Part shown: positions 2,993 to 50,981 of the stretch, piece by piece
Layout of the letters: each line of letters begins with the position of its first letter
Position numbering within the stretch: the stretch's first letter is position 1
Assembly (NCBI GenBank): GCA_052326605.1
Contig: JBKQMB010000044.1
Span: 862 to 64,861, forward strand
Length of the DNA stretch: 64,000 nt
Reading direction: 5' to 3'
From: Acidimicrobiales bacterium
Lineage (GTDB): Bacteria > Actinomycetota > Acidimicrobiia > Acidimicrobiales > RAAP-2
Translations under genes and position numbers: made by a program
The notes under the pieces: generated by a model
Seen by the model: only the letters and a program-made list of their open reading frames with translations
Database searches by the model: none
Told to the model about the DNA's origin: nothing

Positions 2993-4549
2993 GTGGCCCA
3001 GGCGGTGCACCGGGCCGCGACAGAAGCTCCTACCAACGGTGAGGACGCCGGCCGACCCTCCGGCAACTCGGCACAAGGGCCGATCCGAAAAGCCCGCCGC
3101 ACCCGGCTGTCGGGCGGACTGGGGCTCCGGGCCCGGGTCACTGCGGCATTTGCCATTGGTGCCTTTGCCCTCTCCACCATGATGGCCGGCATCACGTACT
3201 TCGCCGCCCGCCAGACCTTTCTCAACGAGCGCCAGACCGCTTCGCAACGCCAGGCCTTCGCCAACGCCTCGTTGATCCAGAACGCGCTCCGCTCGCCCGG
3301 TACCCAGGTCGACCAGTTGATCTCGTCGGTGGACACCCTGCCCGGATCACGGTCGGTGCTGGAGGCCGGCGGCCAGTGGTACGCAACGTCGATCTCTGTG
3401 GGCCAGAGCGCCGTCCCCGTCCAGGAGCGCACCCTCGTCCTGGCCGGCACGCCGGCTTCCCAGCTCTTCTCCCTCGGCGGGACTCCCCAACTGGTGATCG
3501 GCGTGCCGCTCCCGGCGGTGCATGCCGCCTACTTCGAGGTGTTCTCGTTGGACGAGCTGGCCGGCACGCTGCGGGCCCTGGCCTTCGCTCTCGCCGCAGC
3601 CGCCCTGGTCACCACCCTCGCCGGGGCCGCCGTCGGACGATGGGCCAGCTCTCGGGCACTGCGCCCGCTCTCCGACGTGACCGATGCAGCAGTGGCCATC
3701 GCCGGTGGTGAGCTCGACACGCGGATGGAGGTCGGCGACGACGTCGACCTCCAGGAACTGGCCTCCGCGTTCAACCGGATGACCGCGGCCTTGCAGGACC
3801 GCATCGAACGGGAGGCCCGGTTCACGTCGGACGTCAGCCACGAGCTCCGCTCACCGCTCACCACGCTCATGGCAACCGTGGGCGTGCTCGAGGGCCACCG
3901 GGACGAGTTGGGCCCGCGAGCGCAGAGCGCCCTCGATCTGCTCGACGGGGATCTGAGGCGGTTCACGCGCATGGTGGACGACCTCCTGGAGATCTCGAGG
4001 TTCGACGCCGGTTCCGCCGAGCTCTCGCTGGACGAGGTCGACCCCGGGGAGCTGGTCCGCCGGTCGGTGACCGCGTCCGCCCCCGTCGGCGGCGACGGCC
4101 ACCGGGCTGCGGTCGCCTTTCCAGTGGAGATCGGTGAGGGCGTCACGGGCCTGCGGCTCCGGGTCGACAAGCGGAGGTTCGAGCGGGTCATGGCCAATCT
4201 GGTCGAGAACGCCTCGCTCTACGCCGGAGGTGTCAGCAGGGTCATCGTCGAACGCCACCCCGGCGTGGCCGGTGCCGAGCCGCCCCGGACCATCCGGGTC
4301 ATCGTCGAGGATCGGGGACCGGGGATCCCAGAACACGAGCGCCAGCACCTGTTCGAACGCTTCTACCGGGGAAGCCGGGCCGGCCAGCGGGCCTCCAGCC
4401 AAGGCACCGGTCTCGGGCTGTCCCTGGTGGCCGAGCACGTCCGGCTCCATGGCGGCCGGATGTGGATCGAAGACGCACCGGGCCACGGGTCGAGGTTCGT
4501 CGTCGAACTCCCCCTCCAACCGGTCGACTCCGAGCCGGTGATCCCGTGA
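2993..4549 (+). CDS. mtrB: Sensor histidine kinase, MtrB-like
   Basis: Membrane segments, a HAMP-like linker, an H-box (SHELRSPLT), an N-box (NLVENA) and G-boxes (DRGPGI, GTGLGLS). It starts 3 nt after the regulator's stop codon. Confidence 0.85.
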   Translation: MAQAVHRAATEAPTNGEDAGRPSGNSAQGPIRKARRTRLSGGLGLRARVTAAFAIGAFALSTMMAGITYFAARQTFLNERQTASQRQAFANASLIQNALRSPGTQVDQLISSVDTLPGSRSVLEAGGQWYATSISVGQSAVPVQERTLVLAGTPASQLFSLGGTPQLVIGVPLPAVHAAYFEVFSLDELAGTLRALAFALAAAALVTTLAGAAVGRWASSRALRPLSDVTDAAVAIAGGELDTRMEVGDDVDLQELASAFNRMTAALQDRIEREARFTSDVSHELRSPLTTLMATVGVLEGHRDELGPRAQSALDLLDGDLRRFTRMVDDLLEISRFDAGSAELSLDEVDPGELVRRSVTASAPVGGDGHRAAVAFPVEIGEGVTGLRLRVDKRRFERVMANLVENASLYAGGVSRVIVERHPGVAGAEPPRTIRVIVEDRGPGIPEHERQHLFERFYRGSRAGQRASSQGTGLGLSLVAEHVRLHGGRMWIEDAPGHGSRFVVELPLQPVDSEPVIP

Positions 4550-41099: not shown

Positions 41100-42752
41100 T
41101 CAGGTGCGGGCGTCCTCAGCCGCAGCGAAGTCTGCCTCGACGCTCTCGTTGTCCTCGACCAGATCCATCAACTCGCGGAGCGTCGTCACCGGCAGGGCGT
41201 CCCGGGGCCAAGACTCCGTGTAGCCGTCGAACTTTCCGCCATCGGTGCTCCCATCCGGTTGGATTCCCCGGTCATGGAGCGCCTTGAGGATGGATGTCTC
41301 CCAGGCCTTCGCCAGGTTGCCATCCATCGGACCTCTCAGGTCCAGTAGGTTCCACCCGCCCTTCTCGTGCTGGGACAGTCGCGACTTCGGATCGTTTGTT
41401 ATGCCAATCTGAGTTAGCCCCCAAGAGGGATGATCCAACAGATAGAGCCAGCCCCTCGCCGACGAATCAAAGCCATGCTTGGCACAACGTGGGCAGCCGT
41501 TTCCCGCTAAGCGATTGTTACCGGGGGCTTGCCACTCGTGATCCGGTCCTTCCGGGCACTTCCACCAGAGTCTCGTGTGGGTTCCCGCGACCACATCGGC
41601 GGGAGTCAGGTCGCCGTTCTTCGTCGGGTGGAACTGGGCGGCAAGCTCCGGGAAGTTGGCCAGGCTGTTGGTCACCGACACCTGGAATCCTGCGCAGAAG
41701 GGGCAGCCGCTTCTGTAAACACGCCTGTTCCCGGTGGTTTGCCACTCGTGGTCCGGTCCCTTCGGGCACTTCCACCAGAGCTTCTTCACGGTTCCCGCCA
41801 CCACATCACTGGGGTTCAGGTCGCCGTTCTTCGTCGGGTGGAACTGGGCGGCAAGCTCCGGGAAGTTCGCCAGAGTGTTGGTCACCGACACCTGATAGCC
41901 AGCGCAGTAGGGGCAGCCGCGTCTACGGCCTACTCGGCCATTGCCGGTGGCTACCCACTCGTGGTCCGGTCCTTCCGGGCACTTCCACCAGAGCCTCGTG
42001 TGGGTTCCGGCCGTTACATGTGCGGGTGTCAGGTCGCCGTTCTTCGTCGGGTGGAACTGGGCGGCAAGCTCCGGGAAGTTCGCCAGACTGTTGGTCACCG
42101 ACACCTGATAGCCAGCGCAGTAGGGGCAGCCCCATCCACTCATACGGCCGCTCCCAGGCGCCTCCCACTCGTGGTCCGGACCCTGCGGGCACTTCCACCA
42201 GAGCCTCCTGTTTGTTCCCGCCACCACATCGGCGGGGGTCAGGTCGCCGTTCTTCGTCGGGTGAAACTGTGCCGCTAGCTCCGGGAAGTTCGCCAGGCTG
42301 TTGGTCACCGACACCTGGAATCCTGCGCAGAAGGGGCAGCCGCTTCCACTAACACGGTTGCCTCCGGTGGCCTCCCACTCGTGGTCCGGTCCCTCGGGGC
42401 ACTTCCACCAGAGCCTCCTGTTTGTTCCCGCCACCACATCGGCGGGGGTCAGGTCGCCGTTCTTCGTCGGGTGAAACTGTGCCGCTAGCTCTGGGTAGTT
42501 GGCCAGGCTGTTGGTCACCGACACCTGTCTGCCCGCGCAAGCGGGGCAGCCGCTTCCATTAATGCGGTTGTTCCCGGGGGCTTGCCACTCGTGATCCGGT
42601 CCTTTCGGGCACTTCCACCAGAGTCTCGTGTGTGTTCCCGCGACCACATCGGCGGGGGTCAGGTCGCCGTTCTTCGTCGGGTGCCACTGAGCCGCCAAGT
42701 CAGGGTGGGTGACCGCAAGGTTGTGAGTCTCAGACGCCCTGGCACCGCCCAT
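41100..42752 (-). CDS. Six-module zinc-ribbon (DUF4379-like, CHCC) array fused to a GIY-YIG-superfamily-like C-terminal domain
   Basis: Six repeats of HPTKNGDL...LWWKCPxGPDHEW...GCPxCAG...NSLANFPELAAQF. The tail reads GWLYLL...QIGITNDPKSRLSQHEKGGW. Confidence 0.85.
   Translation of the reverse strand: MGGARASETHNLAVTHPDLAAQWHPTKNGDLTPADVVAGTHTRLWWKCPKGPDHEWQAPGNNRINGSGCPACAGRQVSVTNSLANYPELAAQFHPTKNGDLTPADVVAGTNRRLWWKCPEGPDHEWEATGGNRVSGSGCPFCAGFQVSVTNSLANFPELAAQFHPTKNGDLTPADVVAGTNRRLWWKCPQGPDHEWEAPGSGRMSGWGCPYCAGYQVSVTNSLANFPELAAQFHPTKNGDLTPAHVTAGTHTRLWWKCPEGPDHEWVATGNGRVGRRRGCPYCAGYQVSVTNTLANFPELAAQFHPTKNGDLNPSDVVAGTVKKLWWKCPKGPDHEWQTTGNRRVYRSGCPFCAGFQVSVTNSLANFPELAAQFHPTKNGDLTPADVVAGTHTRLWWKCPEGPDHEWQAPGNNRLAGNGCPRCAKHGFDSSARGWLYLLDHPSWGLTQIGITNDPKSRLSQHEKGGWNLLDLRGPMDGNLAKAWETSILKALHDRGIQPDGSTDGGKFDGYTESWPRDALPVTTLRELMDLVEDNESVEADFAAAEDART
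41478..42710 (-). repeat. Six in-frame tandem 210-bp repeats (70-aa zinc-ribbon units; the last unit is truncated)
   Basis: The periodicity can be read in both the DNA and the protein. It includes a perfect 95-bp match between 42187-42281 and 42397-42491. Confidence 0.9.
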
Positions 42753-42804: not shown

Positions 42805-43176
42805 TTACGGAATGCGTAGCGAGAGATGGAGCGCCAGGGCTTCGTCCACCTGATCCATGACCGCCGTTGGAAGAGTGTTGATCAAGTTCCCAAGGCGTTC
42901 CTTGGCCACTGTCAGAAGTTGGCCGCAGTAGATAGTCCCACCTTGCTGGTCTAGAAGGTCAGGAGGAAGAGACACATTCTGCGGGTACTGCCTCCGAGGG
43001 ATGGTGTGAGTGATCGCCACGACCGTCACCACCGATCCAAACTCATTGCCTACATCGTTAGACACGACCAGAGCCGGACGCTCGCCTGCCTGTTCGGAGC
43101 CTCGCGTGGGCGAGAAGTCCACCGAATACACTTCGCCGCGACGAGGAGGAATGGGCACCGACGCAGGGTACCGCAC
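42805..43176 (-). CDS. mazF: Type II toxin, PemK/MazF-family endoribonuclease
   Basis: RGEVYSVDFSPTRGSEQAGERPALVVSND...VVAITHT...GTIYCGQLLTVAKERL is a MazF/PemK signature. It has a GTG start at 43176. Confidence 0.9.
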   Translation of the reverse strand: MRYPASVPIPPRRGEVYSVDFSPTRGSEQAGERPALVVSNDVGNEFGSVVTVVAITHTIPRRQYPQNVSLPPDLLDQQGGTIYCGQLLTVAKERLGNLINTLPTAVMDQVDEALALHLSLRIP

Positions 43177-43183
43177 CCCTATT

Positions 43184-43456
43184 TCAGTAGGGGTTGTCCA
43201 TCGACTGGATTGCGGCCGGGGCGGCGAACTCGGCGATGGCGAGTGATGCCGCTGCCTGCTCCTCGTAACCTTGACGCAGGAGAATGACCTTCCACATTGG
43301 CATCCCGGGAGGGGCCTTGCGCACTGGCACGGTCATAGTCGTCCCTGCGAAGCTCGCCCGAAGATAGGCGCTGGTCACTCGCGCAGAAGTTGCCTCGTTG
43401 ATCCCGGAAGGGGAATAACCGTCGGGATTCGTCGCCACTAGTTCGGTGACTGTCAT
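43184..43456 (-). CDS. Hypothetical 90-aa protein in the antitoxin position (no recognisable MazE/AbrB, RHH or HTH motif)
   Basis: The ATG at 43456 overlaps the DUF3467 stop (ATGA). Its stop is 7 nt before the mazF GTG. Third codon positions look coding. The alternative frame 43179..43493 is Arg/Ser/Asp-rich and less protein-like. Confidence 0.55.
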   Translation of the reverse strand: MTVTELVATNPDGYSPSGINEATSARVTSAYLRASFAGTTMTVPVRKAPPGMPMWKVILLRQGYEEQAAASLAIAEFAAPAAIQSMDNPY

Positions 43457-43773
43457 TGTGGCTCCTTTCCGGCATTCGGCCCAGGTCGCTCATTAGCCGC
43501 CATGGCTTTCATGGCATCTTCTCGCAGGCTGACATTCGTTGCCAACGCCCTCAACATGTCATCGACGACTGTAGGCGGAACCTTGATGCGCGCCACCACT
43601 CGGGCAGGAACATTGACCACCGATTCGCCAACCTGAGACTGCGGCAGTCCAGTGACCATGAAATCCAGCGTGAACTCGTGCAGGGTGTGCCAAACGCCTA
43701 TGAAGTTGGCGTAGATGTTCGGCAGGTCGTCCGGCACTTCGATTTGGAAGTTCGTGGTCGGTTCCTCAGGCAT
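43453..43773 (-). CDS. DUF3467-family protein
   Basis: NFQIEVPDDLPNIYANFIGVWHTLHEFTLDF...ARVVARIKVPPTVVDDMLRALATNV fits the DUF3467 pattern I recall (I.I...YaN...v.Hs..EF.lDF ... R..m.P..ak.l..aL). The ATG is at 43773. Confidence 0.75.
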   Translation of the reverse strand: MPEEPTTNFQIEVPDDLPNIYANFIGVWHTLHEFTLDFMVTGLPQSQVGESVVNVPARVVARIKVPPTVVDDMLRALATNVSLREDAMKAMAANERPGPNAGKEPQ

Positions 43774-43868
43774 GACTGAACCATCGTTACACAGGTCAGC
43801 CTCACCAGGCTTGTCAGCGAGGGCCACATCCCCCAGCCTGAACGGTTGCGGCCACGCCAGCCGGGCTG

Positions 43869-44522
43869 TCAGGCGGTCGCGGCGAGTACGTCCAGAGAAA
43901 CTGAGCCGATGACAGCCCTGACCGTAGAAGCGTGCCACCTTCCGCCTCGGGCGGTAGGTATTGCCTCGGCATTCAGATCGTCGGCGACAGCTCGCAGGGA
44001 ACGGCCAGCTGCCCTCTCGGCGGCGATGCGGAGGCGCACGCCCTCGGCCAGCTCGACTGGGCGACCGAGACGGACACCACGGGCCTTCATGGCCTGCATG
44101 GCCTCGGAAGTCCGCTGGCCGATGATCCGGCGCTCCCACTGAGCTACGGAGCCGTAGATGTTGGCCATCAACTCGCCGGTCGGGGTGCTGGTGTCTACGT
44201 CTACGTCAAGGGCCACAAGCGACCAGCCGCCCCGCTTGGCCCGCTCAACCAGGGTGGCGAAATCCCGCACCGACCGGGACAGCCGGTCAAGTTTGGCGAC
44301 GGCCAGCACGTCAGCCTCGCCCCGGTCGAGGCGGTCGAGGGCGTCGGTCAGGGCCGGGCGGTGGATGTTGCTACCCGAGCGGCCCTCGTCGGTGTGGCTG
44401 CCCACCAGCTCCCAGCCACGGGCGTCGATGGCCTTGCCGATGGTGGCGGCCTGGGCCTCCAGTCCGTTGCCGGTGTCGGCCTGCTTGTCAGTGCTGACTC
44501 GGTGATAGGCGATCACTCTCAT
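43869..44522 (-). CDS. Small serine recombinase (resolvase/invertase family)
   Basis: MRVIAYHRVSTDKQ (catalytic Ser context), VAKLDRLSRS, and a C-terminal HTH (GRSLRAVADDLNAEAIPTARGGRW). Confidence 0.92.
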   Translation of the reverse strand: MRVIAYHRVSTDKQADTGNGLEAQAATIGKAIDARGWELVGSHTDEGRSGSNIHRPALTDALDRLDRGEADVLAVAKLDRLSRSVRDFATLVERAKRGGWSLVALDVDVDTSTPTGELMANIYGSVAQWERRIIGQRTSEAMQAMKARGVRLGRPVELAEGVRLRIAAERAAGRSLRAVADDLNAEAIPTARGGRWHASTVRAVIGSVSLDVLAATA

Positions 44523-44561
44523 GTGCCTAGTGTACATAAAAGGTTCCCATCTTGTACAGGA

Positions 44562-50870: not shown

Positions 50871-50944
50871 CGGGAAGTAGCGCAGCTTGGCAGCGCGCCT
50901 GCTTTGGGAGCAGGAGGTCGCGGGTTCAAATCCCGTCTTCCCGA
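50871..50944 (+). tRNA. tRNA-Pro (anticodon UGG); its 5' 39 nt form attR
   Basis: Acceptor stem CGGGAAG/CTTCCCG, D arm GCGC-AGCTTGGCA-GCGC, anticodon stem-loop CCTGC-TTTGGGA-GCAGG, T arm GCGGG-TTCAAAT-CCCGT, discriminator A. CCA is not encoded. Confidence 0.95.
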
Positions 50945-50981
50945 CACGGCGGATGGCGCTCGCGGCGAACGGCCGCGGGTC

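Follow-up and report, generated by a model that had tools for sequence, protein, structure and literature searches.

A three-gene MazEF-type cassette headed by a DUF3467 gene in an Acidimicrobiales bacterium, and a possible partner role for DUF3467

Does a small DUF3467 gene at the head of a mazF operon belong to the toxin-antitoxin (TA) system encoded there, and if so, what does it contribute? The question is raised by a locus in a 64,000-nucleotide stretch of contig JBKQMB010000044.1 (assembly GCA_052326605.1, Acidimicrobiales bacterium), referred to below as the window, where genes for a DUF3467 protein, a 90-aa protein (orf90) and a MazF-like toxin follow each other on the minus strand. 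Classical mazEF loci are bicistronic, and MazEF, one of the best-studied TA families, is regarded as strictly two-component. The cassette may be a mobile tricistronic MazEF-type TA module in which orf90 is the antitoxin and DUF3467 its partner or stabiliser, a reading that we regard as an even proposition. Its parts are:

43782..43794, minus strand: conserved DNA motif CTGTGnnACGATG, 13 nt, ending 8 nt upstream of the DUF3467 ATG
43453..43773, minus strand: DUF3467 gene, first in the cassette, ATG 43773 to TGA 43453, 106 aa
43184..43456, minus strand: orf90 ('orfX'), middle gene, ATG 43456 to TGA 43184, 90 aa
42805..43176, minus strand: mazF, last gene, GTG 43176 to TAA 42805, 123 aa

A recurrent three-gene unit around a MazF toxin

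The three open reading frames (ORFs) are arranged head to tail. The TGA of the DUF3467 gene overlaps the ATG of orf90 as ATGA (43456-43453), and orf90 stands directly upstream of mazF in the same orientation, with 7 nt between its stop codon and the mazF GTG (0-19 nt in homologous loci). An initial annotation of the window had described this layout, including the overlap and the gap, and all of its details were reproduced on the minus strand. The mazF gene could also start at an in-frame GTG at about 43155, because its homologues start at VPIPPRRGEVY.

The mazF product matches PemK_toxin (PF02452) with E=6e-29 and 100.9 bits (cut-off 23.1) over positions 1-108 of the 109 in the profile, and it retrieves 28 MazF, Kid and PemK sequences from the PDB at E<=1e-3. 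Its closest solved relatives are B. subtilis YdcE/EndoA (1ne8, 4mdx, 4me7), matched over the full length at E of about 1e-19. The catalytic pair is R25/T48 in B. subtilis and R29/T52 in E. coli MazF; when the window MazF is aligned with 1ne8/4mdx, its R33 and T56 fall on the B. subtilis residues Arg25 and Thr48, so that both catalytic positions are intact. Judged from these matches, mazF encodes an EndoA/YdcE-type MazF/PemK toxin, and its earlier description as a clear family member stands. A 241-aa MazF relative with a long C-terminal extension, encoded on a plasmid of Rhodococcus sp. DMF-1 (L072; NZ_CP090444.1, 113-1405), pairs with a SocA/Panacea-domain antitoxin and not with MazE, and represents another non-canonical MazF partner in the Actinomycetota.

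The order DUF3467, ~90-aa gene, MazF was found in six metagenomic loci in total (the window, L001, L002, L005, L086 and L087), and all known triplets are from uncultured Actinomycetota. Those in L001, L002 and L005 were reached through close DUF3467 relatives of the window protein; in L001 the mazF ORF is present though no gene was called there. The fifth triplet (L086) was reached via the orf90 homologue P0008, and its DUF3467 gene is cut by the contig end. The sixth (L087) is far more divergent and consists of DUF3467 (Pfam E=1.5e-11), an 87-aa gene and then MazF; among the 45 metagenomic loci obtained with the MazF query, DUF3467 occurs only in this closest one (57% identity). The ATGA overlap between DUF3467 and the middle gene is retained in five of the six loci.

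Homologues of orf90 are rare. When 1.84 billion representatives were searched exhaustively with HMMER, only six matches at E<=0.001 were obtained, the weakest of them doubtful, and a word-indexed homologue search recovered only orf90 itself. Every distinct full-length version whose locus was read (window, L001, L002, L005, L086) sits in a triplet, and each remaining match is a near-copy, a fragment or a frameshifted form of one of them. The orf90 hidden Markov model (HMM) had no match in the other 68 DUF3467 loci, and no orf90-MazF pair without DUF3467 was found in the HMMER search, the DUF3467 loci or the ORFs around MazF relatives. Across the triplets the identity of orf90 falls to 34%, and to 23% for the middle gene of L087. 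Pairwise ratios of nonsynonymous to synonymous substitution rates (dN/dS) were 0.10-0.13 (orf90), 0.05-0.09 (MazF) and 0.06-0.34 (DUF3467), with dS close to saturation. Purifying selection therefore acts on all three genes, and each encodes an expressed protein under constraint. The flanks vary: the window has a serine recombinase, L005 a tyrosine integrase and L001 transposases. It is the triplet that is inherited as a unit. The proposal of a translationally coupled three-gene unit around a real MazF is thus borne out by five further loci, and orf90, whose lack of conserved homologues would have told against the proposal, is conserved within them.

The motif CTGTGnnACGATG is invariant in the window, L001, L002 and L005, the four loci with upstream sequence, even though synonymous positions within the genes are saturated. 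Because L005 carries it out of frame, what is conserved is the DNA and not a protein sequence. Its position marks an operon control region before DUF3467 and ATG 43773 as the likely start of that gene, rather than the start of the longer NCBI annotation (124 aa, P0002), because the sequence upstream of this ATG is kept as DNA. No separate conserved element precedes orf90. The motif is a candidate promoter (-10-like) or operator element; an E. coli-type promoter scan of its region found nothing.

The middle gene and its likeness to MazE

The protein orf90 has no match in Pfam, NCBIfam, PADLOC or PDB sequences; in Pfam and NCBIfam there is no ribbon-helix-helix (RHH), CopG or AbrB match at E<=1, and no helix-turn-helix (HTH) was detected. 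In the alignment of its family (A7), the N-terminal ~50 residues are weakly conserved (Y31, G38, P49) and have no detectable family. Conservation is strong in the C-terminal segment 53-90 (W55, L59, L60, G63, Y64, E65, Q67, A68, P80, D87, Y90), whose core reads LLRQGYEEQA...P. This segment is acidic (isoelectric point, pI, about 4.1), which fits a blocker of the RNA channel.

In ordinary MazE, an N-terminal RHH domain supplies dimerisation and operator binding. Contact with the toxin is made elsewhere in the protein: B. subtilis MazE (EndoAI) binds the cleft of the MazF dimer via the C-terminal part of alpha2 and alpha3 (PMC5086665). The MazF-binding region of EndoAI is DLMRRGYMEMAKINLNISSEA, and the corresponding stretch of orf90 is ILLRQGYEEQAAASLAIAEFAAP.

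Profiles of MazE were built from genuine RHH antitoxins whose genes precede those of MazF relatives on plasmids and metagenome contigs; these antitoxins have L-x-EGY-[KR]-A-[LM]-A in common. Against a 13-sequence profile (A10), hhalign gave the orf90 family (A7) a probability of 80% (P=1.4e-5), and a query that also included L087 a probability of 83% (P=8e-6). With a profile from which two MazE noticed by similarity were removed, so that its members had been chosen by position only (A12), A7 obtained a probability of 46% (P=2e-4) in unchanged register. Only the C-terminal part is aligned, orf90 56-84 corresponding to B. subtilis MazE 53-81. With single MazE sequences in place of a profile, hhalign yielded P=0.014 and 8.7e-4, and both real scores lay above all 300 composition-preserving shuffles; the B. 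subtilis sequence was identical to 4me7 chain E, and S. aureus MazE was also compared. HMMER tests against MazE were weak (E 3-6), with members of the orf90 family at ranks 2, 3 and 5 among 3935 ORFs, and convincing numbers came only with a broader MazE profile. Among ORFs around MazF relatives, the best matches of the orf90 HMM outside the family were the L087 middle gene and an RHH MazE in L100. An AbrB-like N-terminus was also considered and was not significant (hhalign versus E. coli MazE, P=0.22).

The C-terminal motif of orf90 is homologous to the MazF-binding segment of MazE. As the N-terminal RHH domain is missing, orf90 is by its sequence a derived form and not a canonical EndoAI-type MazE, and with moderate confidence it can be regarded as a MazE derivative that kept the toxin-binding tail and lost the RHH domain. 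The initial annotation had recognised no MazE signature and spoke of an unconventional antitoxin. Indeed RHH, AbrB and HTH are all absent, but the C-terminal 30 residues match the MazE segment (P of 1.4e-5 and 2e-4), and the antitoxin is therefore not wholly unconventional. The converse assignment, in which DUF3467 would be the real antitoxin and orf90 an accessory factor, is unlikely since it is orf90 that carries the MazE-like segment.

DUF3467, its other settings and the surrounding island

The first protein of the cassette matches Pfam PF11950 (E=2.3e-7, 31.2 bits; gathering 25), a profile that finds 3137 proteins at E<=1e-5. Its AlphaFold2 (AF2) model, based on a 123-sequence alignment, is confident (predicted local distance difference test, pLDDT, 82.9) and consists of a beta-meander with three or four strands (24-29, 34-41 and 57-65 are listed) and a long C-terminal helix (67-94). 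Invariant residues of the sheet are Y21, N23, W28, H29, F34, D37, F38 and R62. The window protein has a pI of 4.7 and a net charge of -6, and acidity is uniform across the family (123 members with a median pI of 4.6 and a range of 4.05-5.45). This acidity argues against a repressor of the omega/PaaR type and favours binding to protein over binding to an operator. Consistently, no HTH, RHH or AbrB signature and no other DNA-binding domain was detected with Pfam.

The initial annotation had compared DUF3467 with SecB, the chaperone of some three-part TA systems. In the Foldseek comparison with the PDB, the DUF3467 model had no match at E<0.001 (best E 0.33) and no SecB appeared among the 50 matches listed; BFVD returned only uncharacterised proteins, the PDB profile search was null, and hhalign against E. 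coli SecB gave a probability of 0.5%. Homology to SecB was rejected on these grounds, and by analogy alone a chaperone-like role is possible. A PC4-like fold amounted to no more than a weak lead (Foldseek template TM-score, TMt, 0.52, probability 0.54, E=0.82; hhalign versus human PC4, 0.07%).

The genomic settings of the family were surveyed in 71 loci from metagenome-assembled genomes (MAGs) of Actinomycetota. MazF is present at three of the 71, all of them the closest relatives of the window protein, and DUF3467 was seen in viral contigs at 2 loci only. A core context, found at 12 loci, joins whiB and DUF3467 with convergent selB/selA. A WhiB-family gene precedes the core gene by 30-45 nt in many Acidimicrobiia (L082 5703-6330; L083; L084 5343-5948), and the context NfeD - WhiB - DUF3467 is conserved with SelB/SelA convergent. 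This conserved context points to a housekeeping role of the family and possibly to a functional link with WhiB-like regulators.

Two further operon types are headed by DUF3467. The second type (10 loci, Gaiellaceae and Solirubrobacterales MAGs) continues with a 105-132-aa gene and a 99-100-aa gene, and in most loci the DUF3467 stop and the next start overlap as ATGA. It was seen in L035, L037, L039, L051, L053, L060, L061, L068, L069 and L070 (examples L037 3001-3959; L080 5001-5977). The 105-132-aa partner has the C-terminal motif TGIxGxG..EA..D...A..EH..VLERQ and the 99-100-aa partner the motif KGMER.E.HHHMFRK..GVT.LVTR.SH; as far as these sequences indicate, the two may be an undescribed toxin-antitoxin-like pair. 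An identity of the ~120- and ~100-aa partners with HicB/HicA was unconfirmed (hhalign HicA P=0.03 and 0.13, HicB P=0.36). In the third type (5 loci), an ATGA-coupled, conserved 78-aa gene follows DUF3467. Its loci (L042, L043, L044, L046, L048; about 3001-3548) belong to Microthrixaceae and Candidatus Poriferisodalis, and it occurs twice in one genome (L043/L044), about 4.7 kb apart, beside a transposase-like ORF. No motif common to orf90 and the middle proteins of type-III DUF3467 cassettes was found.

Neighbour joining placed the DUF3467 proteins linked to MazF, those of type III and those of type IV in separate clades, apart from the clade of the whiB context, and the proteins of L001, L002, L005 and the window form one clade. 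The family thus comprises core members and several mobile lineages, and each of these lineages is coupled in translation to its own kind of small-gene cassette. A recurrent linkage to toxins, on which the initial annotation had staked its proposal, is found in part: DUF3467 is repeatedly joined to small-gene cassettes, but MazF is the only recognisable toxin among them.

In the window, the cassette lies inside a stretch of lower G+C content (0.60-0.65 at about 41-46.5 kb versus 0.68-0.72 in the flanks). Neighbouring features are:

43869-44537, minus strand: small serine recombinase, Resolvase N-terminal domain (E=1e-39) and partial Recombinase domain, 95 nt upstream of DUF3467
41100-42752, minus strand: 550-aa protein with six tandem DUF4379 treble-clef zinc finger repeats (Pfam E=1e-118)
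50871-50945, plus strand: tRNA-Pro(TGG), the sole tRNA in the window, about 4-5 kb past the low-G+C stretch

At the 3' end of the recombinase gene there are a terminator-like hairpin and an inverted repeat of 9 nt with perfect arms (43863-43871 / 43910-43918). Together with the recombinase and the lower G+C content, they suggest a mobile island. The DUF4379-repeat gene follows mazF after 52 nt on the same strand. The C-terminal region of its product has weak GIY-YIG and T5orf172 matches (E 0.035 and 0.16, respectively); the protein has no PADLOC match, and it is absent beside the triplet in the other loci.

The role of DUF3467 in the cassette

If the cassette is a TA module, MazF would act as an EndoA-type sequence-specific mRNA endoribonuclease, and the helix-forming C-terminal segment of orf90 would most likely block its RNA-binding cleft as EndoAI-type MazE does. 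Without the N-terminal RHH domain, orf90 would also be without the dimerisation and operator binding that this domain usually provides. DUF3467, made first and translationally coupled to orf90, would be produced in stoichiometric amounts and may be an obligatory protein partner of the N-terminal part of orf90 that holds the antitoxin stable or oligomeric. It would thereby take over stabilisation or dimerisation from the lost RHH domain and set the level of free MazF, following a logic like that of a toxin-antitoxin-chaperone (TAC) system without kinship to SecB. Involvement of DUF3467 is pointed to by the ATGA overlap in five of the six loci, the motif before its gene, the similar coupling in other clades (10 + 5 loci) and the acidity of the family.

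Compared with known systems, the cassette resembles B. subtilis EndoA/EndoAI (YdcE/YdcD, NdoA) in its full-length EndoA homologue with catalytic Arg and Thr, in the antitoxin gene directly upstream and in the C-terminal L-x-EGY-x-x-x-A...E.A segment of EndoAI-type MazE. Unlike EndoA/EndoAI, it has an antitoxin without RHH and a third gene, DUF3467, that heads the operon and is coupled to the antitoxin gene. With TAC systems (HigBA, MqsRA, HicAB or CmdTA with a SecB-like chaperone) it shares a tricistronic, type II-like organisation with a small acidic third protein, whose family likewise has stand-alone core members and specialised copies that travel with different small-gene cassettes. However, DUF3467 has no detectable relationship to SecB. 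In TAC systems the TA pair precedes the gene of the SecB-like chaperone (bioRxiv 10.1101/2024.02.24.581848), whereas here the accessory gene is first, not last, and the toxin is MazF, which is unmentioned in that work. Furthermore, orf90 has no visible chaperone-addiction (ChAD) extension and ends about 5 residues past the MazE-aligned segment. The TAC-like layout suggested by the initial annotation was thus not recovered, the gene order being reversed and the C-terminal extension beyond the toxin-binding segment missing. In the succession of an accessory gene, an antitoxin without DNA-binding domain and a toxin, the cassette is also like omega-epsilon-zeta and paaR-paaA-parE, but omega and PaaR are basic RHH or HTH repressors, in contrast to the acidic DUF3467 without a DNA-binding signature.

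Several points weigh against DUF3467 as a stabiliser of a MazE-derived antitoxin. Neutralisation of the toxin by orf90, contact between orf90 and DUF3467 and the stabilising role are steps that we infer. The similarity of orf90 to MazE spans only about 30 residues, so that its support is moderate, and the high hhalign probability needs the profile with the two sequences that had been noticed for their resemblance. For orf90, AF2 run on the single sequence gave a poor model (pLDDT 54) that does not allow a fold search, and the DUF3467 model has no significant structural neighbour in the PDB and hence gives no positive pointer to chaperone activity. In both other cassette types the partners match no Pfam, NCBIfam, PADLOC or PDB family and are not recognised as toxins or antitoxins. 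Most DUF3467 genes are stand-alone or whiB-linked with no toxin nearby, and, with the exception of the divergent L087, the linkage to MazF may go back to one evolutionary event.

The last two of these points, with MazF at just three of the 71 loci, many DUF3467 being whiB-linked core genes and the linkage in close relatives going back to one clade, favour the view of an ordinary two-gene MazEF in which DUF3467 is a co-transcribed, co-mobilised passenger of unrelated function. This is unlikely given that the triplet was kept in all six loci, in different mobile contexts, while orf90 diverged to 34% identity (23% in L087), and that the ATGA overlap persisted in five of them. A passenger would also be at odds with the conserved promoter-proximal motif before DUF3467 and not before orf90, with the failure to find an orf90-MazF pair without DUF3467, and with the divergent L087 triplet, which has a very different DUF3467. 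Alternatively, DUF3467 could be a separate transcriptional autoregulator that supplies the DNA binding lost by the RHH-less antitoxin and does not affect its stability. Three-component TA systems with a separate regulator exist (PMC3879964), and the first position in the operon, as for omega and PaaR, the lack of a DNA-binding domain in orf90 and the conserved DNA motif directly upstream would suit such a function, as would the least weak PDB match by template TM-score, the single-stranded DNA-binding PC4 domain (TMt 0.52), which at E=0.82 is not significant. The family-wide acidity (pI 4.05-5.45, n=123; net charge -6 here), the absence of HTH, RHH and AbrB signatures, the hhalign probability of 0.07% for PC4 and the stand-alone members in unrelated contexts make this autoregulator quite improbable.

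There is a slim chance that DUF3467 is itself the MazF inhibitor, or a sensor or trigger subunit that binds, for example, a phage protein or nucleic acid, with orf90 as an adaptor. Many toxin-channel blockers are acidic like DUF3467, its invariant aromatic and charged beta-sheet residues could form a binding face, and a lower-G+C island beside a recombinase is a typical setting of defence genes; the MazE toxin-binding motif, however, is in orf90 and not in DUF3467, PADLOC gave no matches, and DUF3467 is rare in viral contigs (2 loci). A broader proposal is put forward tentatively, as rather doubtful: DUF3467 may be a new family of small acidic partners unrelated to SecB, whose mobile copies were independently recruited to at least three small-gene cassettes of Actinomycetota as stabilisers, chaperones or adaptors, while the core copies, such as the whiB-linked ones, would be general chaperone- or adaptor-like factors of a phylum that is not known to have SecB.

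In our literature search DUF3467 was mentioned only in unrelated work, and neither a MazF module that includes DUF3467 nor such an RHH-less MazE is described in the searchable literature, in agreement with the initial view of an undescribed MazF partner set. The cassette is an undescribed variant of MazEF and not a new category. It is a version whose antitoxin keeps of MazE just the toxin-binding tail and which always includes a member of a large uncharacterised family. If DUF3467 were a passenger, a routine MazEF with an unusual antitoxin N-terminus would remain. If DUF3467 is the partner of the antitoxin, the cassette would provide the first functional handle for a family of thousands of members and reveal a second, non-SecB route to three-part toxin-antitoxin control, and it would mean that antitoxins can pass dimerisation or regulation to a separate subunit.

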